Notes under the pieces: model-generated
Databases searched by the model: none
What the model saw: the letters and a program-made list of their open reading frames with translations, nothing else
What the model was told of the DNA's origin: nothing
Program-made: the position numbers and the translations under genes
In this document: positions 31,254-50,686 of the stretch, one piece after another
How positions within the stretch are numbered: position 1 is the stretch's first letter
Layout of the letters: each line of letters starts with the position of its first letter
UHGV virus genome: UHGV-0041314
Origin: a virus
Direction: 5' to 3' (one strand)
Length of the DNA stretch: 64,000 bases

Positions 31254-31502
31254 ATGGCTACTATCCGCGCAACTGTTAACGAATTCGGCTTTTGCTCTCT
31301 GGATGTTAAATTTGACCTTGTAGGTACTGATAACGCCTTTGAGATGGTGAAAGGTCTTATCAGTCAGACCATCAAAGACTATAACCCTTCTGATGAGTTC
31401 TGGAAAGAAACAAAACAGGAAGTTCTCAAAGATGGTTATTCTTATCACTATTGGGGTGAAAAAATTGTCTCCCTGTACTACGACAAAGAAGGCACTAACT
31501 AA
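31254..31502 (+). CDS. small hypothetical protein (82 aa), array gene 16
   Basis: type-B cassette upstream; two hairpins then T-run downstream. Confidence 0.5.
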   Translation: MATIRATVNEFGFCSLDVKFDLVGTDNAFEMVKGLISQTIKDYNPSDEFWKETKQEVLKDGYSYHYWGEKIVSLYYDKEGTN

Positions 31503-31540
31503 ACGCCGCAACGGGGCTAAATAGCCCCAGATACCTTTAC

Positions 31541-31562
31541 AGCCCCTTAAATGGGGCTTTTT
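31541..31562 (+). terminator. rho-independent terminator ending the small-gene array
   Basis: AGCCCC-TTAAAT-GGGGCT then TTTTT; preceded by second hairpin GGGGCTAAATAGCCCC. Confidence 0.6.
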
Positions 31563-31929
31563 ACGTCTTATCAAATCTCTATACAATCCCTTTCCTTCCC
31601 TTTCCAGAATCTATCCCACTGATTCGATAGAATCTATCTCGTACCTTAAAAGCAATAACTCTATAGTCTACTCTATAACCTCTTATCAAATCAACTTAAA
31701 TAAAAGCCAATAACCCCAGAAAGGGGATGGCCCATTTAAACGCTCTATAAAGCCCTATAACAGCCTTATCAACCTAACTTAAGGGATTGCATTAACCCAC
31801 TCTAAAAAGCCCTTTATAAAGCTTCCTATAGCCTCAAAAGAATCTTATAAGGGTGTAAGCTTTATCATCTCGTTAGTTATCTTGTGAATAACTCAATAGC
31901 CCTTGATAGTCTCTAAAAAGTATGTTATA

Positions 31930-33070
31930 GGGGCTGTTAAGTTACTTTGAAGTTACGTAAAAGAGGCTATAAAGTTACGTAAATGCTAGCCCCCTTAACA
32001 TTTTCTTAACAATTTCTTAACAATCCCTACATAGTTATGCTTTTAAGGCACTTGTTAGCAACTTGTTAGCCCCTTGTTAAATCTCTGTTAAGACCACGTA
32101 AAAGCCTTGTAAGAGTCTTTAGCATAGCCTTTAAAGCCTCTGTAAAGCCCTATAAATAGGTGTCTGTATAGCTGGGGTGTAATTACTAGGAAGAGACTTA
32201 AAAGAGCTTATAAGGAGCTATAGAGAGCTTTTAAGAGGGCTATTTAGAGAATCACTAAGAGAGAGAGGGAACGATAAGAAAAGAGATAGTGACCATGTTA
32301 ATAGCTTGTTAAAAAGATTAAACACTTGTTAGGAACTTGTTAATTATCTTAACAAAATAACTCTTAAAAATTAACTTGTTAGCTCTTGTTAGTCATCTGT
32401 TAAGACTCTGTAAAGCCTATGTATCAACTGTTAAGAACTTGTTACACCCTTGTTAGTTCTGTTAAGAATCTGTTAAGACCTCTGAAGAGATGTTAAGAGG
32501 ATGTAGTAGCTGTTAAGAGATTGTTAAGGATATTTTAAAATTCTGCAAAGGGATGGTAAGGGAGCTGTTAAGGGCTACCAAGCAGATATACATCTTCTAC
32601 AGATATTTTTCAGTTCCTTCAAAGACCCTAAAAAATGACTTGATAGTCCTATTTTATAAAAATTTTAAAATTCTGAATAATTACCTAGACAGTCTTTTAA
32701 AAATACAGGCATAAACAGGCTTATAAGATACCTTGTTAGTACCGTGTTAGACCTTGTGAGATAAGGTCTGTAAAGATATTCCTGTTAAGTTTGTTAAAAC
32801 AGTCTATATAGAGGCTTAGTATTTCCTAGTGAACACCTATAGATGGTATCATAGCTGACATAGAGATTAAGAGGTGTATAGGAGCTTCTAAGAGGGTATA
32901 GAGAGATGGTTAATGTGATTGTATAGGTTGTTAAGAAGGCTTGTTAGAAGAGTGTTTAGAAGGGCTATACAGAGGGGCTATTAAGACCACTAGATAGATA
33001 CTAAGATACTATATAGTACTATATAACTATATATAGAGAGTAAGCTTAAGAAGGTTGTTAAGAAGGGTAG
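31930..33070 (+). repeat. dense array of degenerate short direct repeats (core TGTTA[AG]G / CTTGTTAG) in a non-coding region
   Basis: about 28 forward-orientation copies counted by eye across ~1.1 kb; no ORF of 60 aa or more in the surrounding ~1.6 kb except a shadow ORF. Confidence 0.6.
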
Positions 33071-33169
33071 ATATTTTATTCACATATGATGGTGACCCAG
33101 AGGTTGGGACAACCGATAAAATTTTATAAAAATTAAAAAGCCCCCAATTAAGGAGGCTCTTAAGATATT

Positions 33170-33763
33170 TTAAATCAGTGTTTCCAGAACTGTTTTTAAT
33201 GATGACTTGGTTGTCTGATAAAAATGAGTAAATCCATTGTTGTTATCAAATACCTGCATCATGATATCATCTCCCTTGATTGGGTAAACTCGGATATCGT
33301 AGTGAAAACCATTAAAGACACAAGAACCATTACAGAATAAACTAAAGTCATCCACTGAGATATACTCTTCATGACCTGTGATTTTTATACAAACACCTTT
33401 ACTCGGTCTCTTAGGGTTGATATCTTCCATCACAGACATACTCTGTCCACCAAGAGAGACCATAGTGACTACTTTACGGTTCTTCTGCCTAAAGTACATC
33501 TTAACTTTCTGCAAAGTGTCTTCATAGAACGGATAAGACCTTTCTACAAAGATTCCTTCAAGTGGCTCTTTACCATTTTCAACTTCTCTATTATGCCGTA
33601 CTGCAAAGATAATTTGTTCGAACCAGTCAAGATTTTCTTCGGAGAGTGCTTCCCGAATATCACCCCAATCAAGGACTAGGTAGTTGCCTTCAACATCTTT
33701 TAAGTTATCTTTTTCCATATCTATTATACCATTATCGTAAAACTTGGTAATCTGGGACTGCAA
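33170..33763 (-). CDS. hypothetical protein
   Basis: track ORF starts at TTG; alternative in-frame ATG at 33718; no clear RBS for either. Confidence 0.3.
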   Translation of the reverse strand: MQSQITKFYDNGIIDMEKDNLKDVEGNYLVLDWGDIREALSEENLDWFEQIIFAVRHNREVENGKEPLEGIFVERSYPFYEDTLQKVKMYFRQKNRKVVTMVSLGGQSMSVMEDINPKRPSKGVCIKITGHEEYISVDDFSLFCNGSCVFNGFHYDIRVYPIKGDDIMMQVFDNNNGFTHFYQTTKSSLKTVLETLI

Positions 33764-41062: not shown

Positions 41063-41290
41063 GGCAGACCTACAGCTTTAAGTAAGATGGTACAGTAATC
41101 CATACAACAAGTCAAGAACTATTGCAAGTTAAAAAAGTTGTTGACAAAGTACTTGACAAGGTGTAGGCTTATAAATACTTAGAAGATAACTTAAAAGGTT
41201 CCTCTAAAAAGGCTATTTAAACAGATATCTTTCTGGATATCTATCTTTTATCTTAAAAGCCTTTTAAGAGGTCTTATAAGAGGCATACCA
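41063..41290. promoter_or_regulatory. divergent promoter region between minus- and plus-strand blocks
   Basis: 228-bp gap between divergent genes; two TTGACA hexamers (41141-41146, 41153-41158); TTAAGAG/CTTATAAG motifs shared with the 31.6-33.2 kb repeat region. Confidence 0.45.
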
Positions 41291-41662
41291 ATGAAAAACA
41301 GAACAAACAAAGGCCAGTTTAAAAAAGGCCAATCTGGAAACCCATCTGGAAGACCAAAAGGCTCTCGTAACAAAAGCTCACTTGTAAAAGCTCAACTGAC
41401 CATTGATAATTCTGCTGAGTTCGCTGCAAAGCTGTTTGAGGCGATTGTTACAAGGGACGCTGCTAAGCTTGCAGAGTTCGGGTTAAACACAGACGATGTA
41501 ACCATCAAGAGCATGATTGAGGTCGGTAAAACCATCTTTACTCACTCAGCAGGTGAGATGAAAGCACTTGCAGCAGACACTAAGAAAACCCCTGATAATG
41601 GCGGTCAGCCACAGACAGATAACAAACCAACGTTCTCTGCTGTAGCGACTCTCAAAAAATAA
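41291..41662 (+). CDS. hypothetical protein with N-terminal GNPSGRPKG motif
   Basis: FKKGQSGNPSGRPKGSRNK; AAGAGG RBS; first plus-strand gene after divergent region. Confidence 0.35.
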   Translation: MKNRTNKGQFKKGQSGNPSGRPKGSRNKSSLVKAQLTIDNSAEFAAKLFEAIVTRDAAKLAEFGLNTDDVTIKSMIEVGKTIFTHSAGEMKALAADTKKTPDNGGQPQTDNKPTFSAVATLKK

Positions 41663-43429: not shown

Positions 43430-43506
43430 CTCTGTTTAGCTCAGCTTGGTAGAGCGTTCCGTTTGGGGCGGTAAGGCCGGAGGTTCAAGTCCTCCAACAG
43501 AGACCA
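43430..43506 (+). tRNA. tRNA-Pro (anticodon UGG)
   Basis: cloverleaf by eye: acceptor CTCTGTT/AACAGAG, anticodon loop TTTGGGG, T-arm GGAGG-TTCAAGT-CCTCC, CCA encoded. Confidence 0.65.
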
Positions 43507-43513
43507 AATTAAT

Positions 43514-43591
43514 GTTCCAGTAGACAAAATGGTAAAGTCACCACTCTTTCAAAGTGGATATTTGAGGGTTCAAATCCCTTCTGGAACGCCA
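43514..43591 (+). tRNA. tRNA-Glu (anticodon UUC)
   Basis: acceptor GTTCCAG/CTGGAAC, anticodon arm CCACT-CTTTCAA-AGTGG, CCA encoded. Confidence 0.7.
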
Positions 43592-43596
43592 GTTTT

Positions 43597-43672
43597 GACA
43601 GAAGACCAATTGCAGCAAACTTAATCTTATTCATCTGAAGGTAAATCGGACAAAGAAGAGATTTGGTCTGGT
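43597..43672 (+). ncRNA. structured RNA element, bulged-helix family member 1
   Basis: CAGAAGACCAA...TTGGTCTGG long-range pairing with 2-nt bulge enclosing ~55 nt A/U-rich sequence containing CAGCAA. Confidence 0.3.
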
Positions 43673-43682
43673 CATTAAGAAT

Positions 43683-43759
43683 TGCGGGTATAGAGAAAGG
43701 GCGTCTCACATGTCTCATTAGCATGGTATCGGCAGGTTCGACTCCTGCACCCGCCTCCA
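43683..43759 (+). tRNA. tRNA with CAU anticodon (Met or Ile2), irregular 5' half
   Basis: T-arm GCAGG-TTCGACT-CCTGC and CCA clear; anticodon arm CATGT-CTCATTA-GCATG; 1-72 mismatch; extra nt before D-stem. Confidence 0.45.
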
Positions 43760-43763
43760 AATT

Positions 43764-43832
43764 TACAGAAGACCGTTTACAGCAATATTTATTAAATTTT
43801 TAGCGGAAAAATTGAAAGATACGGTCTGGTAA
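43764..43832 (+). ncRNA. structured RNA element, bulged-helix family member 2
   Basis: CAGAAGACCGT...ACGGTCTGG pairing; conserved TTTACAGCAA after 5' strand. Confidence 0.3.
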
Positions 43833-43842
43833 TACTAAACAT

Positions 43843-43919
43843 GGTTAGGAAGCACATAAGGTATGTGCGGTCGCCTGTTAAGCGAATGGCACAGGGTTCG
43901 AATCCCTGACTAACCGCCA
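43843..43919 (+). tRNA. tRNA-Asn (anticodon GUU)
   Basis: acceptor GGTTAGG/ACTAACC, anticodon loop CTGTTAA, T-arm CAGGG-TTCGAAT-CCCTG, CCA. Confidence 0.7.
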
Positions 43920-43988
43920 AATTTAGGAGAGAAGCGATTGCTCACCGATTTGTAAGGTGCAAGTCCTTAGCCTGAATAGAAATTAAAT

Positions 43989-44076
43989 GTGTCGTTATCC
44001 CGTAGATGGTAGCGGTGGGGACTGTAAATCCCTTGTCATTGAGACTCGGTAGGTTCGACTCCTACACGGCACACCA
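43989..44076 (+). tRNA. tRNA-Tyr (anticodon GUA), long variable arm
   Basis: 88 nt; anticodon arm GGGGA-CTGTAAA-TCCCT; variable arm GTC/GAC; T-arm GTAGG-TTCGACT-CCTAC; CCA. Confidence 0.65.
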
Positions 44077-44082
44077 AATAAA

Positions 44083-44160
44083 GGTTATGTAGTTTAATCT
44101 GGTTAAAATACTCCCCTGTCACGGGAGATGATGAGGGTTCGAATCCCTTCGTAACCGCCA
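44083..44160 (+). tRNA. tRNA-Asp (anticodon GUC)
   Basis: acceptor GGTTATG/CGTAACC, anticodon arm CTCCC-CTGTCAC-GGGAG, CCA. Confidence 0.75.
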
Positions 44161-44245
44161 AATTATAATAAGTATTTCAAAATGATGTTTTGAGAGGGCT
44201 ATTTAGCCCCTCCCTTAAAGAGTTCTTACGAGTATTCTTTAAAGG

Positions 44246-44322
44246 AGCAGAAGACCAAATTCAGCAAGTTACTTAAAATTTCAAGCCAATTTAATTTTGA
44301 AAAATTTAAAACTTGGTCTGGC
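44246..44322 (+). ncRNA. structured RNA element, bulged-helix family member 3
   Basis: CAGAAGACCAA...TTGGTCTGG pairing; AATTCAGCAA after 5' strand. Confidence 0.3.
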
Positions 44323-44332
44323 TCAACAAATT

Positions 44333-44468
44333 TACAGAAGACCGTTTACAGCAAACTTTAAACAATCTATTTCTCCGGTAAAGAAAAGGCGAAGGTTCGA
44401 TTCCTTCACTCGGCAGATGTCGAGTTGGTGTAATGGTAGCACTTAAGATGATAAACAACGGTCTGGTA
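44333..44468 (+). ncRNA. structured RNA with circularly permuted tRNA-like module inside a long bulged helix (Y-RNA/YrlA-like candidate)
   Basis: outer helix CAGAAGACCG (44335-44344) / CGGTCTGG (44459-44466); inside, T-arm GAAGG-TTCGATT-CCTTC then acceptor 3' strand ACTCGGC, 4-nt turn, acceptor 5' strand GTCGAGT and D-arm-like TGGTGTAATGGTAGCAC. Confidence 0.4.
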
Positions 44469-44475
44469 ATTATCT

Positions 44476-44604
44476 TTGTAGATAAGTTATTAAGCTTACC
44501 TGTGAGTATGCGACCACAAAGGGTGAAAGGGTAAATTCTAGATTTAAACCCAACAAGGCACATCGCTACAGACCTTAAGCAAGTCTGGGTAGCTTATCTA
44601 CAAA
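44476..44604 (+). ncRNA. structured RNA candidate enclosed by a 10-bp long-range helix
   Basis: TGTAGATAAG (44477-44486) pairs with CTTATCTACA (44595-44604); internal CAGACC...GTCTGG hairpin. Confidence 0.25.
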
Positions 44605-44615
44605 GATGATTTAAT

Positions 44616-44691
44616 GGAAGTGTAGCAGAATGGTGATGCGGCAGACTTTTAATCTGACAGGCGATGGGTTCGAATCCCTCCACTTCTACCA
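44616..44691 (+). tRNA. tRNA-Lys (anticodon UUU)
   Basis: acceptor GGAAGTG/CACTTCT, anticodon loop CTTTTAA; weak T-stem; CCA. Confidence 0.55.
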
Positions 44692-44695
44692 ATAT

Positions 44696-44772
44696 GGTTC
44701 AGTCGCAGATAAGGTAATGCAGGGGTTTCATAAGCCCTATGAATGTGGGTTCGATTCCCATCTGAACCTCCA
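44696..44772 (+). tRNA. tRNA with CAU anticodon (Met/fMet/Ile2)
   Basis: acceptor GGTTCAG/CTGAACC perfect; anticodon arm GGGGT-TTCATAA-GCCCT (G-C rich); T-arm GTGGG-TTCGATT-CCCAT; CCA. Confidence 0.65.
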
Positions 44773-44773
44773 A

Positions 44774-44849
44774 GCTGGTATAGTTAAGAAGGTTATAACA
44801 CTCCCCTGATAAGGGAACATCGGTGGTTCGATTCCACCTACCAGTACCA
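44774..44849 (+). tRNA. tRNA-Ile (anticodon GAU)
   Basis: anticodon loop CTGATAA; T-arm GGTGG-TTCGATT-CCACC; CCA. Confidence 0.7.
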
Positions 44850-44864
44850 ATTTCAATAAAGTTG

Positions 44865-44893
44865 TTGACATTGAGATGTGACGACTTTATAGT
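44865..44893 (+). promoter_or_regulatory. sigma70-like promoter inside the tRNA cluster
   Basis: TTGACA - 17 bp - TATAGT. Confidence 0.55.
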
Positions 44894-45187
44894 AACTGAA
44901 AATGATTCAGTATATGTATAATTCAAACACCAATACATGAGCGTTAGACGTAACACAATGTGGGGAAATTTGTTGTACATATTCTGAATAGTTTTCGTTG
45001 CGTAGCGTCTATTTTGCAAATTTAAAATAAATGCAAACGACAATGTTTTTCTGGCAGTAGCTTGATAGGCTAAACACCAGTGAGGTCTTCCAATCCCTCA
45101 TCAAAGAATTTGGCGTACTAGCCCACGGTATGATTAATAAGGTGGGCATCTTTAAGGGCTTTCTAAGAGAGTCTTTAAAGATAATTA

Positions 45188-45269
45188 CGGGGCGTATCTC
45201 AGCGGTCTTCTAAACCGCCGTTAACCGAGTAAGTGGAGTATGCGGGTTCGAGTCCTGCCGCCTCGACCA
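45188..45269 (+). tRNA. tRNA-like gene with irregular 5' half; anticodon undetermined (possibly UCU)
   Basis: canonical T-arm GCGGG-TTCGAGT-CCTGC, acceptor 3' strand and CCA; D/anticodon region does not fold as a standard cloverleaf by eye. Confidence 0.35.
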
Positions 45270-45412
45270 ATTTAGTTAGCAGATTGCTTAGACGACCTTA
45301 TCGGGTCTCCGTGTAAGGAGGTGGTCTGTATCTCATGTTTTCCAGAACATGTAAATAATCTGAGAAGGGGCTTTACAGTGTTGCGAAAATACGGTAAGCT
45401 TCGAATTACAGT

Positions 45413-45495
45413 ATGGGACGATGTTAAGACTCTAAGGCATGAGCAACGGCCTCCAAAACCGTTTCAAAGGGGTTCAACTCCTCCGTCCCATGCCA
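45413..45495 (+). tRNA. tRNA-Trp-like (anticodon CCA) with ~7 extra nt between acceptor and D-arm
   Basis: 3' two-thirds canonical (ACGGC-CTCCAAA-ACCGT, T-arm, GTCCCAT, CCA); 5' acceptor strand ATGGGAC displaced upstream. Confidence 0.4.
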
Positions 45496-45508
45496 AAGTC
45501 TTATTAGG

Positions 45509-45596
45509 GGTAGGTAGCGGCTAATGGTAGCCAAACTGTCTTGAAAACAGTTGCCACTGTAGAGATACGGTGAGGGTTCGACTCCTTTACTTACCG
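45509..45596 (+). tRNA. tRNA-Ser (anticodon UGA), long variable arm
   Basis: anticodon arm ACTGT-CTTGAAA-ACAGT; T-arm GAGGG-TTCGACT-CCTTT; 3' end encodes CC only. Confidence 0.6.
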
Positions 45597-45754
45597 CCTA
45601 ATAAGATTTACACCGTCCATGCTTGCTCGCATTTTCGGTTTATCCCTCGTGTATTGGTTGTACACACTGATAAAGCACCTAGTAGGTGTCACGGAGAAGA
45701 GATAATATCAAGCTCTCCAAAGGTTCTAGTCACCGGATTAAACAAGACTATGCA

Positions 45755-45776
45755 AAGACCTAAATAGGTCTTTTTA
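45755..45776 (+). terminator. rho-independent terminator inside tRNA cluster
   Basis: AAGACC-TAAATA-GGTCTT then TTTT. Confidence 0.5.
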
Positions 45777-45854
45777 GAGGGCTTCTAAGGTTATTACAGC
45801 TTGTTGTGGAACCTTGTTGCTTAGGTTCTTAGAAGTTCTCTAAAAAGATTTAAT

Positions 45855-45932
45855 GGGAGATTGACGGTAATTGGTAAACCTACCATCCTTAGAAGTTGGT
45901 GTTTGAGGGTTCGAATCCCTTGTCTCCTACCA
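45855..45932 (+). tRNA. tRNA-Leu-like (anticodon UAG), short variable loop
   Basis: acceptor GGGAGAT/GTCTCCT, anticodon loop CTTAGAA, T-arm GAGGG-TTCGAAT-CCCTT, CCA; D region irregular. Confidence 0.45.
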
Positions 45933-45939
45933 AATTAAT

Positions 45940-46015
45940 GCAGGTGTAGCAAAATGGTTATGCGGCTGACTCTTAATCAGTAAGACGATGGGTTCAATTC
46001 CCTCCACCTGTACCA
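45940..46015 (+). tRNA. tRNA-Lys (anticodon CUU)
   Basis: acceptor GCAGGTG/CACCTGT, anticodon arm GCTGA-CTCTTAA-TCAGT, CCA. Confidence 0.55.
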
Positions 46016-46021
46016 AACATT

Positions 46022-46097
46022 GGGGTCATAGTTTATATGGTTAAAATTCGAGTTTTGCAAACTTGGGAACTGAGTTCAACTCTCAGTGACTCCACCA
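46022..46097 (+). tRNA. tRNA-Ala (anticodon UGC)
   Basis: acceptor GGGGTCA/TGACTCC, anticodon loop TTTGCAA, T-arm CTGAG-TTCAACT-CTCAG, CCA. Confidence 0.7.
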
Positions 46098-46103
46098 ATT
46101 AGT

Positions 46104-46178
46104 GCATCCATAGTTTAAACGGGAAAATTACAGTCTTCCAAACTGAGGTTGAGGGTTCGATTCCCTCTGGATGCTCCA
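46104..46178 (+). tRNA. tRNA-Gly (anticodon UCC)
   Basis: acceptor GCATCCA/TGGATGC perfect, anticodon loop CTTCCAA, T-arm GAGGG-TTCGATT-CCCTC, CCA. Confidence 0.75.
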
Positions 46179-46185
46179 AATTAAT

Positions 46186-46262
46186 GCTGCTTTCGTATAA
46201 TTGGCTATTACACATCCCTTGTAAGGATGGAAATGCAGGTTCGAGTCCTGTGAGCAGCACCA
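46186..46262 (+). tRNA. tRNA-Thr (anticodon UGU)
   Basis: anticodon arm CATCC-CTTGTAA-GGATG, T-arm GCAGG-TTCGAGT-CCTGT, CCA. Confidence 0.75.
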
Positions 46263-46263
46263 A

Positions 46264-46356
46264 TTCAGAGGTCAAGTGAAAGACCGCTTTGAGTCAACTG
46301 AAGACCGTAACAAATCCCACGGAGTTGAGTTAGCGGCACAACTTCAGACCTCTTTC
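46264..46356 (+). ncRNA. structured non-tRNA RNA between tRNA-Thr and tRNA-Val
   Basis: nested helices AGAGGTC/GACCTCT, CTGAAG/CTTCAG, TCAACT/AGTTGA; contains CTGAAGACCGTAACAA resembling the CAGAAGACC motif. Confidence 0.3.
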
Positions 46357-46358
46357 AT

Positions 46359-46433
46359 GCTCGCTTAGTTTATATGGTAAAACATCACCCTTACAAGATG
46401 AAGAAAAAGGTTCAAGTCCTTTAGTGAGTACCA
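46359..46433 (+). tRNA. tRNA-Val (anticodon UAC)
   Basis: acceptor GCTCGCT/AGTGAGT, anticodon loop CTTACAA, T-arm AAAGG-TTCAAGT-CCTTT, CCA. Confidence 0.65.
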
Positions 46434-46434
46434 T

Positions 46435-46512
46435 GTTCCAGTATCCCAATTGGCAGAGGATGCAAGCTCAAACCTTGTATTAGTGACGGTTCGAATCCGT
46501 CTTGGAACACCA
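46435..46512 (+). tRNA. tRNA-Leu-like (anticodon CAA), short variable loop
   Basis: anticodon arm GCAAG-CTCAAAC-CTTGT, T-arm GACGG-TTCGAAT-CCGTC, CCA; weak D-stem. Confidence 0.5.
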
Positions 46513-46626
46513 ATTTTAGGAGAACACTATGAGTAATAAATCAATTGCAAAAAAGTTTATAGCGTCATTCAAAAACAGGCGTAAAAACAACTCTTGTGAA
46601 AAACTGTATGGTGTTCTTGTAGGTAA

Positions 46627-46702
46627 GCAGGATTAGTTCAAATGGATAGAGCAACAGTCTACGAAGCTGTTAATAGGGGTTCGAATCCCTTATCCTGCAC
46701 CA
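46627..46702 (+). tRNA. tRNA-Arg (anticodon ACG)
   Basis: acceptor GCAGGAT/ATCCTGC perfect, D-arm GTTC/GAGC, anticodon arm ACAGT-CTACGAA-GCTGT, CCA. Confidence 0.75.
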
Positions 46703-46721
46703 ATTTAAAGAGGCTATTTAG

Positions 46722-47279
46722 ATGAGATATTTGAAGTATGCTTCATGGATTGTCTTAGCTTTGTTAGAGCCATTTGCAGCAATCTTAGCAGTTATCTTAG
46801 CACCTTTCGTAGTCCCATTCTACAGTGAGAAGAAAGGACACTTACCTTTCGGCTTCAGATGGATGGAGACATATGACAACCCAATTGATGGTGATAAAGG
46901 GCATGTCGAACGATGGGCTAAGATTAGAAAGATTGGCAAGCTTGGTGTCTATATGCAGAGAGTCGGTTGGCTCTGGAGAAACAAAGCTTATAACTTCTCT
47001 TACCATGTATTAGGAAGAGATGTAAAAGATGTTACTAAGTGGAAAGGTAATATCAACGTAAGTTCTAACCCTGAAGATAATCAGACAGGTTATCTCCTAA
47101 TGTGGAACAGTAATGCTTGGGGATTATTCGCTTTTATCCCATCAATTAAAGTCTTTGGTAAACAATTCTACTGGAGAATTTATGTTGGATGGAAGCTAAA
47201 AAGTGTTGTCCCAGAAGAAAGAGCATTCTCAAGGGAAAGAGTTATGTTGGCATTCTTTATTCATCCACTAAGAAAGTAA
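46722..47279 (+). CDS. hypothetical membrane protein embedded in tRNA cluster
   Basis: AAAGAGG RBS; N-terminal hydrophobic segment; between tRNA-Arg and tRNA-Gln. Confidence 0.45.
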   Translation: MRYLKYASWIVLALLEPFAAILAVILAPFVVPFYSEKKGHLPFGFRWMETYDNPIDGDKGHVERWAKIRKIGKLGVYMQRVGWLWRNKAYNFSYHVLGRDVKDVTKWKGNINVSSNPEDNQTGYLLMWNSNAWGLFAFIPSIKVFGKQFYWRIYVGWKLKSVVPEERAFSRERVMLAFFIHPLRK

Positions 47280-47287
47280 AGATTTAA

Positions 47288-47363
47288 AGGGGATTAGTTT
47301 ACAAGGTTAAAACCTCGGTCTTTGAAATCGAAGAAGTTGGTTCAATTCCAACATCCCCCGCCA
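47288..47363 (+). tRNA. tRNA-Gln (anticodon UUG)
   Basis: anticodon arm TCGGT-CTTTGAA-ATCGA, T-arm GTTGG-TTCAATT-CCAAC, CCA; A1-C72 mismatch. Confidence 0.65.
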
Positions 47364-47365
47364 AT

Positions 47366-47444
47366 GCTCCATTACTCCAATTGGTAGAGAGGCCAGACTT
47401 AAAATCTGTGTTATGTATCGGTTCGAATCCGATATGGAGTACCA
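47366..47444 (+). tRNA. tRNA-Leu-like (anticodon UAA), short variable loop
   Basis: anticodon loop CTTAAAA, T-arm ATCGG-TTCGAAT-CCGAT, CCA. Confidence 0.5.
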
Positions 47445-47449
47445 AATTT

Positions 47450-47525
47450 AGCGGTATAGCATAACTGGCAATGCAGCAGTCTCTGAAGCTGTCTTATTAA
47501 GGTTCAAATCCTTATGCCGCTGCCA
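47450..47525 (+). tRNA. tRNA-Gln (anticodon CUG)
   Basis: standard numbering fits: D-arm GCAT/ATGC, anticodon arm GCAGT-CTCTGAA-GCTGT, T-arm TAAGG-TTCAAAT-CCTTA, CCA. Confidence 0.7.
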
Positions 47526-47556
47526 CTTCTAAGGGTTCTTACGAGAGTCCTTAAAT

Positions 47557-47632
47557 GTGGCCTTATCATAAATGGTAATGACCCATGCTGTGAACATGGT
47601 CTATACGGGTTCAAATCCCGTAGGTCACCCCA
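47557..47632 (+). tRNA. tRNA-His (anticodon GUG)
   Basis: D-arm TCAT/ATGA, anticodon arm CCATG-CTGTGAA-CATGG, T-arm ACGGG-TTCAAAT-CCCGT, CCA. Confidence 0.75.
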
Positions 47633-47638
47633 ATTTAT

Positions 47639-47714
47639 AGTCCAAGTAGCTTATATGGTTAAAGCGCGTGTCTGAAAAACATGAGAAGAGGGTTCAAATC
47701 CCACTGGACTACCA
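47639..47714 (+). tRNA. tRNA-Phe (anticodon GAA)
   Basis: anticodon arm CGTGT-CTGAAAA-ACATG, D-arm GCTT/AAGC, CCA; acceptor/T-stem register ambiguous by 1 nt. Confidence 0.6.
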
Positions 47715-47730
47715 ATTCCAAAGGTGCTTA

Positions 47731-48465
47731 ATGAAAGAGATGACAGAACAAGGTAAGGAGATTTTTAATCTCTTAAAAACCGGTAGAGGGTTTTCTAATC
47801 CCCTTATTACTGGTGCAGCAGTTCTCGGTGGAACCGTAGCTGCCTCTACATCACTTGTAAGCTCTATTAGCTCTGTAACAGACCCTACAATAAAAGATAA
47901 ACTTGTTGCTGCTGGACTTACAACAGTTCTGCTTAACAGCTTTACAACGAGCCTGACAAGCACTACATCAACTACTAAGACACTGACAGATTACGGTCAA
48001 AAGTCCATTGATGAGTTTTCCTCACGTATGCAGGTAGCAAAAGGCTATTCTAATGTTATGGGTGCAGCAGGTGAACAAGTTGGCTGTACACCATTTAGTG
48101 GTATTATGGGTGTTGCTACAGAGTATGGTCAAAAAGCTATGGATACGATTAACAGTGCACTAGACGGTGTTAATGATGTATTAAGTGACTTACAGGATGC
48201 TATTGATAAAGGTCTTGATACTATTTCTGATTTAGCTAACCAAGCTGTTAGTAAGATTAATGAAGGTATCTCGAAGATTACAGCTTATGCAGATGAAGTT
48301 GTGCAGATGATTGAAGAAGAAGCTGCCCTTATTGCAGAGTACCTTAAAACGAATATCAATGGGTTCTTAGCAGGTATCTTACCAGACTGGTTCGACGATG
48401 CTTGTAAAACTGGTGTAATTGACACTATTGCAACACCAGAAATGAAGAACGCATTACAGAAATAA
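47731..48465 (+). CDS. hypothetical Ser/Thr-rich protein embedded in tRNA cluster
   Basis: track ORF 47668 starts at GTG inside tRNA-Phe; ATG 47731 with AAGGTG RBS lies after the tRNA. Confidence 0.4.
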   Translation: MKEMTEQGKEIFNLLKTGRGFSNPLITGAAVLGGTVAASTSLVSSISSVTDPTIKDKLVAAGLTTVLLNSFTTSLTSTTSTTKTLTDYGQKSIDEFSSRMQVAKGYSNVMGAAGEQVGCTPFSGIMGVATEYGQKAMDTINSALDGVNDVLSDLQDAIDKGLDTISDLANQAVSKINEGISKITAYADEVVQMIEEEAALIAEYLKTNINGFLAGILPDWFDDACKTGVIDTIATPEMKNALQK

Positions 48466-48467
48466 AT

Positions 48468-48560
48468 GGAAGATTAACCCTAAAAGGTAAGGGAGCAGTT
48501 TGCTAAACTGCCAGTAGCTGAGAAATCGGTGTACCAGTTCAAGTCTGGTATCTTCCTCCA
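48468..48560 (+). tRNA. tRNA-Ser (anticodon GCU), long variable arm
   Basis: 93 nt; acceptor GGAAGAT/ATCTTCC perfect, anticodon arm GCAGT-TTGCTAA-ACTGC, T-arm ACCAG-TTCAAGT-CTGGT, CCA. Confidence 0.7.
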
Positions 48561-48564
48561 ATTT

Positions 48565-48640
48565 GAATCCGTGACAGAAATGGCTATGTGCCTGTCTGCA
48601 AAACAGGTTTATAAGGGTTCGAGTCCCTTCGGATTCTCCA
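48565..48640 (+). tRNA. tRNA-Cys (anticodon GCA)
   Basis: standard numbering fits: acceptor GAATCCG/CGGATTC, anticodon arm CCTGT-CTGCAAA-ACAGG, T-arm AAGGG-TTCGAGT-CCCTT, CCA. Confidence 0.8.
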
Positions 48641-48862: not shown

Positions 48863-49063
48863 ATGAGCGAGACCGTTTATAAAGAACTTTACGAAGCTAA
48901 CAAGAAGCTAGAATTTATGCAGAATACTATCATGGCAATTGCAGACAGATTATCTGTAGCAACAGGTATTGATATTAAAGAAGCATCTATGGATGCACTT
49001 CTTGATGCTGTTGATGCAAAGTTCGAAGTTAAGAAAGAAGAGACTGCTACAGACTCTGAATAA
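48863..49063 (+). CDS. small hypothetical protein upstream of large terminase
   Basis: GGAGAAAACA RBS; first gene after two terminators. Confidence 0.4.
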   Translation: MSETVYKELYEANKKLEFMQNTIMAIADRLSVATGIDIKEASMDALLDAVDAKFEVKKEETATDSE

Positions 49064-49084
49064 TTCTATTTGCGGAGGTGCTTA

Positions 49085-50686
49085 ATGGACTTAAATGCTG
49101 TTAAGCAGAAGCGAGTGGAAGATGTTAGGAAAGTCCTAGCTGGAGAGTTGGGGCTTTCTGATGAAGTAAAAGAAATTATCAAATCATTCGGTAAAGACCC
49201 CTCTAAATTCCTTCCAACTCAAATTCTGACTTTATTAAGATACACCCCAGACCAAGTTAGACTTATCTTCAAATTAATGACTGATAAGAACTATGTAGCC
49301 CCTCAGCCGGGTTCTCAAGAGGTCTTTTTAAATACTAATGCTGACTTGGTTCTCTATGGTGGTGCTGCTGGTGCTGGTAAGACTGCTGCATTATTAATGG
49401 ACTCTTTAAGGTTTATTGATGACCCTAATTATAATGCTGTATATTTCCGTCGAAACACAACACAGTTACAAGGTGGTTTGTGGCCTGCTGCAAAGAAACT
49501 ATTTGGTAAGTTTGGTGGGGTTCCTCACGAGCAGAAGATGACTATCACATTCCCTTCTGGGGCAACTATCAAGTTTACCTACCTAGAACTTGAAAAGCAC
49601 GCTGAAGGTCATCAGGGTATTGAGTATTCAGCTATTTACTTTGACGAAGGTACTCACTTCTCTGCTTCACAGATTTCATACCTACAGACTCGTCTACGTT
49701 CTGGGGCTGAAGGTGATTCATACATGAAGATTTCTATGAACCCAGACAGAGACCACTTTATTTACGATTGGGTAGAACCATTCTTAGATGAAGAAGGTTA
49801 CCCAGACCCTGAAAAGTGTGGTCGTATTCGTTGGTATGTAATGAATGATGGTGTTATGGTTTCTGATTGGGAGAGAGACAAGATTCTTGAAATGTTTCCT
49901 CTTGAGATTCCTCAAACATATACATTCATCTCTGGTACGATTGATGATAACCCAATTCTTGACTTCCTAGAACCTAAATATCGTGGTAAGTTGGAAAACA
50001 ACACCCCTGTAAACGTTGCAAGACTTCGTTTCGGTAACTGGAAGGCTCGTGCAGAAGGTTCAAACTATTGGCAAAGACAATGGTGTGAAATTGTTGATTC
50101 ACTCCCAGAAGATGTATTCGATGTCAGAGCATGGGACTTAGCAGCAACTTTACCATCTGAGATTAACCCTAATCCAGACTGGACAGCAGGTGTTAAGATG
50201 GGTAAATCTAAAAAAGACGGTTGCTATTATATCATTGATGTAGTAAGATTTAGAGATAGACCCTCTGGAGTCGAAACACAAATTAATTTGACTGCTGAAA
50301 GTGACGGTAAGCGAACTGGTATTTTTATCCCTCAAGACCCAGGCGCTGCTGGTAAATCCTACGCAACATCCCTCATCAGGAAACTTGCCGAGAAAGGTTA
50401 TCGAGCAAGGGCTAAACCAACAAATAAAGATAAAGTTACCCGATTTGCGGGGTTTTCTGCTGCTTCTGAAGCTGGACTTGTAAAAGTCTTGAGAGGTAGT
50501 TGGAACGAAGCTTACTTCCAAGAACTTGAAGGTTTTTGTGGTGATGGTAAAACTAAAGATGACCAAGTGGATGCTACCAGTGATGCTTTCAACAGTCTTA
50601 ATGAAGTTAAATTATTCAAGCCACCATCAATGGGTGCTCACACAGACTTAGTGAGAGGAAACCCATATGAGGGGCTTAGACGTTGA
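49085..50686 (+). CDS. terminase large subunit
   Basis: track ORF from TTG 49070; ATG 49085 with GGAGG RBS; Walker A LYGGAAGAGKTAALL. Confidence 0.8.
   Translation: MDLNAVKQKRVEDVRKVLAGELGLSDEVKEIIKSFGKDPSKFLPTQILTLLRYTPDQVRLIFKLMTDKNYVAPQPGSQEVFLNTNADLVLYGGAAGAGKTAALLMDSLRFIDDPNYNAVYFRRNTTQLQGGLWPAAKKLFGKFGGVPHEQKMTITFPSGATIKFTYLELEKHAEGHQGIEYSAIYFDEGTHFSASQISYLQTRLRSGAEGDSYMKISMNPDRDHFIYDWVEPFLDEEGYPDPEKCGRIRWYVMNDGVMVSDWERDKILEMFPLEIPQTYTFISGTIDDNPILDFLEPKYRGKLENNTPVNVARLRFGNWKARAEGSNYWQRQWCEIVDSLPEDVFDVRAWDLAATLPSEINPNPDWTAGVKMGKSKKDGCYYIIDVVRFRDRPSGVETQINLTAESDGKRTGIFIPQDPGAAGKSYATSLIRKLAEKGYRARAKPTNKDKVTRFAGFSAASEAGLVKVLRGSWNEAYFQELEGFCGDGKTKDDQVDATSDAFNSLNEVKLFKPPSMGAHTDLVRGNPYEGLRR

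Follow-up and report, generated by a model that had tools for sequence, protein, structure and literature searches.

A gene-free, repeat-rich interval that very probably forms the genome ends of a Felix O1-like phage

The 64-kb stretch of virus genome UHGV-0041314 analysed here (64,000 nucleotides, hereafter the window) contains a 1.6 kb interval, positions 31566-33169, where two gene blocks converge on gene-free DNA packed with short repeats of the core TGTTA; the rest of the window amounts to 62.4 kb. We propose that this interval is very probably the concatemer junction of a Felix O1-like (Felixounavirus) myovirus, a cis-acting region for packaging and end formation that carries a putative protein-binding array. 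Homology to relatives with mapped ends shows the virion DNA as linear and non-permuted, with a predicted start at ∼31989 and a predicted end at ∼32579, these being the boundaries of a 591-bp direct terminal repeat (DTR).

By megablast, 257 phage records match positions 31500-33200 at 80–95% identity, and nearly all of them belong to Felixounavirus or other Ounavirinae, with Escherichia, Salmonella, Shigella and Citrobacter as hosts. The window also contains 25 tRNA genes clustered at 43430-48640 (+ strand), between a divergent promoter region and the large terminase gene, and a cluster of this size is typical of Felix O1-like phages. Because of the record matches and the tRNA cluster, the source is identified by similarity as a Felixounavirus, that is, a Felix O1-like virulent myovirus genome of ∼88 kb with 39% GC.

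Genome ends in the gene-free junction

The termini were placed by means of related GenBank records, many of which begin or end inside the interval. The records of phages ZX4221 and SeKF_63 open and close with exact copies of 591 and 613 bp, respectively, whose limits correspond to 31989 and 32579, while the feature annotated as 'DTR' in UAB_69 maps to 31987-32581. The records of Pr103Blw, Ro111lw, I14.1 and Citrobacter phage HP1 (Mooglevirus) all start at the base homologous to 31989. For Pr103Blw (annotated short direct terminal repeat, 581 bp) and HP1 (repeat_region 1-570) both repeat ends are homologous to the DTR boundaries, and the HP1 repeat stops exactly before AAGCAGATATACA, as does the DTR of the window. 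The record of UAB_Phi87 (87,603 bp) was rejected as a direct map because it does not start at the termini, and the ends were mapped via the other records.

The published termini agree with this placement. The DTR of UAB_Phi87 was determined to be 608 bp by Bal31 digestion and run-off sequencing, and its TerL clusters in the Felix O1-like DTR group (PMC4837284); the ends of Pr103Blw (PMC8303462) and the 613-bp DTR of Ro111lw (PMC6454146) were mapped with PhageTerm. Published DTRs of relatives span 570–618 bp (PMC4837284, PMC8303462, PMC6454146), and the homologous interval in 27 relatives, 567–658 bp in length, is in line with these sizes.

Only one DTR copy is present in the window because an assembler collapses the two terminal copies, and from the homologous ends in relatives we therefore infer that the window presents a collapsed concatemer junction made up of right-end spacer, one DTR and left-end spacer. 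Such a collapse would put these three segments side by side between converging, terminated gene blocks, in the following layout:

~31510-31530, + strand: second hairpin, upstream of the plus-strand terminator (sequence)
31541..31565, + strand: rho-independent terminator ending the plus-strand gene array, hairpin 31541-31558 (terminator scan and sequence)
31566..31988, no strand: unique right-end spacer, 423 bp leading up to the right-hand terminal repeat; gene-free, indel-prone, ∼79% conserved
31989..32579, no strand: DTR, 591 bp (homology to relatives' record ends and annotated repeats)
32580..33135, no strand: unique left-end spacer, the first 556 bp beyond the left-hand terminal repeat; gene-free, ∼96% conserved overall
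33136..33161, - strand: rho-independent terminator ending the minus-strand gene block (terminator scan)

The identity of this junction as genome ends is already documented for close relatives, and for that reason a region that had seemed mysterious is largely explained. A packaging or DNA-injection pause site was among the roles listed in the original prediction, which was made from the letters of the window alone; the suggestion was right in that the interval holds both virion-end cleavage points and the 591-bp repeat, but as worded it was too vague.

The terminators at 31541-31558 (+) and 33161-33136 (-) fit the description of a convergent junction. The interval had also been called non-coding, and this too holds: no open reading frame (ORF) of at least 30 amino acids (aa) is conserved over 27 related Felixounavirus sequences, and wV8 (L015) has none of that size in the homologous interval. 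In database records, annotation pipelines place 1–5 short 'hypothetical proteins' (26–50 aa) within the terminal repeat and spacers; since none is conserved, these are probably false gene calls.

It is very unlikely that the interval encodes small RNAs, as had been suggested, or a small protein. A 53-aa ORF at 32553-32714 and the short hypothetical ORFs annotated in several records could be taken in favor of coding, but the former is intact in few relatives only and none is shared among the 27. Rfam returned no match at any family's threshold in the interval; the only hit was a weak Phe_leader (26 bits, gathering score 55) over the minus-strand terminator, at 33131-33191. Neither strand of 32580-32830 folds with unusual stability (z = -0.5 and -1.3), and sigma-70 promoter-like sites show no enrichment (10 against 6.4±2.3). 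The proposal of a small-RNA source thus finds no support.

One matching record, GU169904.1 ('Staphylococcus phage SA1', 147 kb), contains a Felix O1-like junction at ∼135354-137102 with 90% identity, and is probably a chimeric or contaminated assembly.

Organization and conservation of the TGTTA array

The junction is A/T-rich (GC 0.34), and its plus strand carries 29 copies of TGTTA, compared to 2.73±1.61 (maximum 9) in 1000 dinucleotide shuffles and to 100 copies in the whole of the remaining 62.4 kb; the earlier statement that the repeats lie far above chance is thus upheld with composition-matched controls. The pattern YTGTTAR occurs 24 times (0.95 in shuffles), strict TGTTA[AG]G 14 times (0.44 in shuffles), and the strict pattern CTTGTTAG eight times. 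The original count of about 28 copies is correct for the relaxed core (27 in 31934-33065) but not for the strict patterns it named, whose union comes to 21. Inverted copies had been noted as well and number five, comprising a tandem trio at 31996, 32007 and 32018 plus single copies at 32350 and 31758. The related CTATAA-type motifs are likewise real, as part of a second enriched family, CTATA/TATAG, with 15 and 12 copies against ∼1 expected.

The TGTTA units are strongly phased. Of the 28 gaps between consecutive units, eleven measure exactly 11 bp and most of the remainder 20, 31 or 44 bp; the lag-11 autocorrelation reaches z = 10.3 for the region and 9.1 for the DTR, as against 1.6–1.7 in two coding controls, with harmonics at 22 and 31–32. 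Phased TGTTA pairs (9–12 bp apart) are found nowhere else in the 64 kb. A recurrence of the motifs at 41063-41290 had been reported, but that segment has a single TTAAGAG, a single CTTATAAG and no TGTTA; we reject the link, and the segment looks like a sigma-70 promoter and ribosome-binding region.

The elements in and beside the DTR are these:

31950..31983, + strand: two copies of AAGTTACGTAAA (31950 and 31972) just outside the left DTR boundary (sequence comparison)
31992..32023, - strand: three inverted units, 11-bp spaced, 3 nt from the left physical end, reading TTGTTAAGAAATTGTTAAGAAAATGTTAAGGGGGC on the minus strand
32051..32118, + strand: six phased units, TGTTA four times (32053, 32064, 32075, 32086), then CGTAA and TGTAA
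32119..32290, + strand: central DTR segment of degenerate 10–11-bp units, GCYTWTAARG / CTATAGAG, lacking the TGTTA core (sequence)
32295..32575, + strand: main array, in which 18 TGTTA units are direct (32296 to 32566) and one is inverted (32350), mostly 11 or 20–22 bp apart
32580..32606, + strand: boundary box AAGCAGATATACA...CAGATAT just outside the right DTR boundary (sequence comparison)

Of the 34 TGTTA units in the junction, 24 lie within the DTR and seven are scattered through the left-end spacer (32734, 32745, 32783, 32792, 32929, 32942 and 33056). The right-end spacer carries degenerate 10–11-bp CTATAA-type units (autocorrelation at lags 10/11, z ∼3.6). The DTR begins G-CCCCCTTAACA, which places an inverted TGTTAAGGG 3 nt from the end, followed by two further inverted units 11 bp apart; it ends ...CTGTTAAGGGCTACC, where the main array closes in TGTTAAGGGCTACC and the TGTTAAGGG is direct. 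An TGTTAAGGG(GG)CTA element is therefore found at both boundaries, pointing outwards, and the two DTR ends form an imperfect inverted repeat (38 nt at 79%, plus a second pairing).

These boundary elements recur in relatives. The TGTTAAGGG unit lies 3–7 nt inside each DTR boundary and is conserved in Felixounavirus, Mooglevirus and Suspvirus, the AAGTTACGTAAA pair is conserved in Felixounavirus and Suspvirus and recognisable in Kolesnikvirus, and AAGCAGATATACA, the first 13 nt of the right boundary box, is identical in four genera. Three relatives (L024, L030 and L034) share an identical 24-bp insertion, ATGAGGTAGATTCTACCGAATCAA, just after 32594, 15 bp outside the right boundary and within an otherwise invariant box. 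At the left end, the 11-bp unit TTTTCTTAACA varies from two copies (L019 and L020) to six (L031) among relatives, which in part accounts for the variation in repeat length from 567 to 658 bp.

In an alignment of the 5.8 kb neighborhood across 22 genomes, few stretches are as well conserved as the DTR and the left spacer (0.87–0.98), and many flanking coding blocks drop to 0.5–0.8. Within the DTR, the TGTTA core columns are 98.1% conserved compared to 87.8% for the other columns (p ∼1e-9). The non-coding DNA can still be aligned with that of Mooglevirus, at 78% over a length of 1.1 kb, while the adjacent 197-aa protein is ∼50% identical. Besides Felixounavirus, the array architecture is conserved in Mooglevirus, Suspvirus and the Kolesnikvirus phage phiEa21-4, four Ounavirinae genera in all. 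In phiEa21-4 the junction can be aligned only over ∼120 bp at the right boundary; its DTR has homologous boundaries (L035, ∼1467-1906), placed by the record ends of related Erwinia phages. We note that the right-end spacer of phiEa21-4 (∼1050-1350) holds ∼12 copies of (C)TTCTAA in place of the CTATAA-type units of Felixounavirus, and the repeat family on one side of the junction therefore differs from that on the other, which is also reported of SRL and SRR in T7.

This pattern of conservation bears on whether the repeats have a binding partner at all. They could be products of slippage, or bent or flexible DNA, kept only for the length and homology of the terminal repeat; the whole region does look like diverged copies of one ∼11-bp unit, and the left-end unit varies between two and six copies. 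However, the TGTTA core is kept better than the spacers (98% versus 88%) and survives in Kolesnikvirus, where the surroundings are unalignable; conservation of a 5-mer together with its phase across genera is not what neutral slippage would leave behind, and we regard this explanation as improbable. The array appears rather to evolve by slippage under constraint on the TGTTA core.

The suggestion that the interval is a replication origin, with the repeats as iterons for an initiator, seems equally improbable. It would suit a dense, phased and directional array in gene-free A/T-rich DNA, and two DnaA-box-like 9-mers, TTATTCACA at 31883-31891 (-) and 33076-33084 (+), flank the array in inverted orientation about the repeat and fit the DnaA-box consensus TTATNCACA. 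These 9-mers are kept in only ∼5 and 19 of 28 Felixounavirus sequences, respectively, and are absent from the other genera, so that we reject them as a functional signal. The units measure 11 bp, whereas typical iterons measure 17–22 bp; no gene for an initiator lies next to the interval; and an origin would have no need to fall, as this array does, exactly on the terminal repeat. GC skew had been proposed as a check, but it merely mirrors gene orientation. The iteron proposal thus gains no specific support. Neither Chi sites nor GATC are present in the interval.

We return to end formation, for which the junction would be the cis-acting substrate. In phages with T7-type short terminal repeats there is one repeat per junction, which is cut at both boundaries and duplicated by strand-displacement synthesis. 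By analogy, terminase would cut at both DTR boundaries and strand-displacement synthesis would duplicate the repeat, and the outward-pointing TGTTAAGGG(GG)CTA at each boundary is what one recognition module would need in order to act on either strand, in opposite orientations. Because the units are phased and one-directional, with conserved cores and variable spacers, the ∼34 TGTTA units, spaced by 11 bp on one face of the helix, would provide a cooperative platform for a protein that binds head-to-tail. A protein coating the array would organise cutting, duplication, annealing or protection of the ends.

Directly outside the right boundary, positions 32580-32800 are 97–99% identical across 27 Felixounavirus genomes, above nearly all of the neighboring coding sequence; TGTTA units are sparse in this segment, which has neither a conserved ORF nor a stable RNA fold and may be the terminase recognition site proper.

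Several points weigh against this account of the junction. The very high conservation of 32580-32800 is not accounted for by its few TGTTA units. The left-end unit varies from two to six copies among relatives, and therefore part of the array tolerates change and may partly reflect replication slippage. The distance from cut to TGTTAAGGG is 3–5 nt on one side and 5–7 nt on the other, and with this inequality of ∼2 nt a symmetric recognition model fits imperfectly. The termini themselves are transferred from relatives and carry an uncertainty of ∼2 nt (ZX4221-type boundaries compared to the UAB_69 annotation). Protein binding to the array is a prediction from sequence. Pfam and PHROGs revealed no small terminase, either in the ORFs around the large terminase gene or among the matches listed for 85 hypothetical proteins of a relative.

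Candidate binders of the array

Two kinds of protein come into consideration as binders, a host regulator and a phage-encoded protein. The sites of the former, ArcA, consist of direct 10-bp repeats (ATGTTAAAAA) in which TGTTA is the most conserved core, at a centre-to-centre distance of 11 bp and with any additional repeats placed 11 or 22 bp away (PMC4173790, PMC3798270), and the core and 11-bp spacing of the array are exactly as defined there. A tentative reading is that the array consists of binding sites for the host response regulator ArcA-P, which at low oxygen levels, such as those of the gut, would form head-to-tail polymers along the terminal repeat. In variants of this reading, ArcA-P would be an architectural or end-protecting factor, would couple packaging or replication to redox state, or would be soaked up by hundreds of genome copies.

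We scored the window with a matrix for the 18-bp ArcA box built from 115 ChIP-derived (chromatin immunoprecipitation) E. coli ArcA boxes (Table S3, PMC3798270), with a threshold of at least 11.6 bits, the 10th percentile of the 115 real sites. This gave 12 boxes in the 1.6 kb junction; the remaining 62.4 kb yielded 10, and shuffles 0.63±0.81. The best matches of the window are the inverted units at the left end of the DTR, two of which form boxes of 22.7 and 22.5 bits and exceed the best of the 115 E. coli sites (21.5). The DTR regions of Mooglevirus, Suspvirus and Kolesnikvirus contain 12–16 boxes each, and those of Kolesnikvirus are kept where the sequence is unalignable: in phiEa21-4 all 15 of 15 boxes lie inside the inferred repeat, inverted in the left half and direct in the right half. 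The units vary as real ArcA sites do, and the variant cores of phiEa21-4 (TGTAA, TGTTG, CGTTA) are those tolerated in such sites. A matrix for the single 10-bp repeat was rejected, since at 7.8 bits it holds too little information to discriminate in an A/T-rich genome. We also note that the two TTATTCACA sites, read on the other strand, are good single ArcA-type repeats (TTGTGAATAA).

The match extends to core, orientation, spacing and score, with 29 direct and five inverted TGTTA repeats where an ArcA site has at least two direct ones, 11-bp spacing, and boxes in the score range of real sites; it does not extend to the flanks. ArcA sites have the ATGTTAAAAA context and A/T-rich spacers, whereas the phage spacers are not A/T-rich; a G follows TGTTAA in 53% of phage units compared to 8% of ArcA repeats, and TGTTAG makes up 26% of phage units compared to 3% of ArcA repeats. 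Furthermore, the matrix is A/T-rich, and the control in which bases are relabelled is not clean: a C/G-swapped matrix still yields nine boxes, so that the specificity comes mainly from one G per repeat.

Biological context points both ways. The known hosts are all Enterobacterales, and SeKF_63 (L158, 61724-69513) encodes both aerobic (NrdAB-type) and anaerobic (NrdD/NrdG-type) ribonucleotide reductases; such phages are therefore equipped for growth without oxygen, which is circumstantial evidence for ArcA. Among the 25 of 30 matched Pfam families listed for the 85 hypothetical proteins of one relative, no OmpR-type winged helix was found that could be a phage counterpart. On the other hand, Felix O1-type phages grow well in aerated culture, with little ArcA-P, and ArcA is therefore not essential; nor did we find literature linking ArcA to Felix O1-like phages.

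The original prediction of a multi-site binding array for a phage regulator is plausible, with indirect support from core conservation and helical phasing; the best sequence match is to host ArcA and not to a known phage regulator. Judged by its sites, the putative binder fits ArcA-P best, and it is conceivable that in four Ounavirinae genera the terminal repeat has become a super-array of predicted ArcA-P sites, with ∼34 repeats compared to 2–5 in host promoters. If so, a redox regulator would coat the genome ends in the anaerobic gut and aid packaging, concatemer formation or end protection; alternatively, the array would act as a sponge during infection, titrating ArcA-P and thereby re-opening the respiratory metabolism of the host. 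In either case a virulent phage would, unusually, have tied its genome ends to host oxygen sensing.

To see whether similar arrays occur in other phages, 2.9 million viral contigs were scanned for runs of four TGTTA units spaced by exactly 11 bp. Of the more than 120 loci obtained, most are perfect tandem repeats from environmental contigs of unrelated viruses, and the result was uninformative on ArcA. Some IMG/VR contigs (L040, L041, L049, L104, L143, L145, L153 and others) have degenerate arrays such as TGTTACAGTTGTGTTAAATCTTTGTTACAG, with TGTTA every 11 bp, and these may be analogous binding arrays in other phage groups.

A somewhat stronger contender, albeit one we would still place short of probable, is a phage protein, either an unrecognised small terminase or another DNA-binding protein, which would bind the array and mark the junction for the large terminase. 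The units have a flank preference of their own, cTGTTAAGa, without counterpart in ArcA sites; the array sits exactly where terminase must act, with both cut sites adjoining an TGTTAAGGG unit; and the motif is conserved with the phage lineage over four genera. Candidates are a 123-aa DUF5681 protein, a 66-aa ORF beside the large terminase gene, and a Cro/C1-type helix-turn-helix (HTH) protein in relatives. The genes concerned in the window are:

41291-41662, + strand: 123-aa protein with basic N-terminus KGQSGNPSGRPKGSRNK (GNPSGRPKG), the first gene after the divergent promoter region (Pfam DUF5681)
48863-49063, + strand: 66-aa ORF, phrog_4397 (function unassigned in PHROGs), directly upstream of the large terminase gene
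49070-50686, + strand: large terminase gene

The 66-aa ORF occupies the place expected for a small terminase, although no family names it. The 41291-41662 protein, whose SeKF_63 homologue matches DUF5681 with E = 2e-14, has no PHROGs function and no PDB relative and is a possible DNA-binding protein or small-terminase candidate. Among the listed Pfam matches the only candidates are one Cro/C1-type HTH protein and one DUF5681 protein, and PHROGs and PDB sequence searches of the candidates gave no function. No protein of the phage could thus be singled out as the small terminase or as one that binds direct repeats; a Cro-type HTH would be expected on palindromes, and known TerS sites have 3–7 repeats, not ∼34.

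Implications and comparison with known systems

Placing the physical genome end gives the correct start point for annotation and explains the short spurious ORFs in many database records. It also defines DNA that must not be disturbed in engineering Felix O1-type phages for diagnostic or therapeutic use. The recognition and duplication of ends in myoviruses with short terminal repeats is essentially unstudied, and the symmetric boundary element and the conserved, helically phased array are concrete targets for mutagenesis. In terms of the literature, we did not find descriptions of the internal organisation of the repeat, the symmetric boundary elements, the conserved phased TGTTA array over four genera, or the match to ArcA boxes.

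The closest comparison is with the DTRs of other Ounavirinae (UAB_Phi87, UAB_69, Pr103Blw, Ro111lw, HP1), which lie at the same locus with homologous boundaries, 78–95% identity and lengths of 570–618 bp. Reports on these give length and position only, and phage heid and its relatives mark anonymous 'repeat_region' features; in the literature and annotations on Ounavirinae DTRs we came across no account of the 11-bp TGTTA array, of inverted elements at the boundaries or of how the repeat is conserved.

T7 is similar in having a non-permuted linear genome, a short exact terminal repeat, two-sided cutting with duplication, and short degenerate repeats near the ends. Its short-repeat arrays SRL and SRR, beside the terminal repeat, were reportedly described by Dunn and Studier in 1983. 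The PhageMaP preprint also notes repeats at the T7 termini. In T7, however, the repeat is 160 bp and the arrays lie outside it, whereas most units here are inside the 591-bp repeat, in strict 11-bp phase and one orientation, and the phage is a myovirus without its own RNA polymerase.

With the ArcA-P sites of E. coli the putative binding array shares the TGTTA core, direct orientation, 11-bp spacing and additional units at 22 bp, and its matrix scores equal or exceed those of ChIP-defined sites. It differs in the preference for flanking bases and in placing ∼34 units in 1.6 kb at a genome end, where host sites have 2–5 repeats overlapping promoters.

Repeats bound by TerS include the R sites of lambda cosB, SPP1 pacL/pacR and the P1 pac hexamers, with 3–7 elements and a known small terminase. 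The junction resembles these sites in having short repeats on both sides of cleavage, plausibly assembling a nucleoprotein complex, but it has far more units, two cuts 591 bp apart rather than one, and no recognised small terminase. Finally, protein p6 of phi29 forms a multimeric, helically phased complex over the genome ends, reading bendability with a 24-bp repeat and not a sequence motif. phi29 differs from the phage studied here in having terminal proteins and no terminal repeat; the likeness lies in a phased, multimeric protein array, putative in our case, over the terminal few hundred bp of a linear phage genome.

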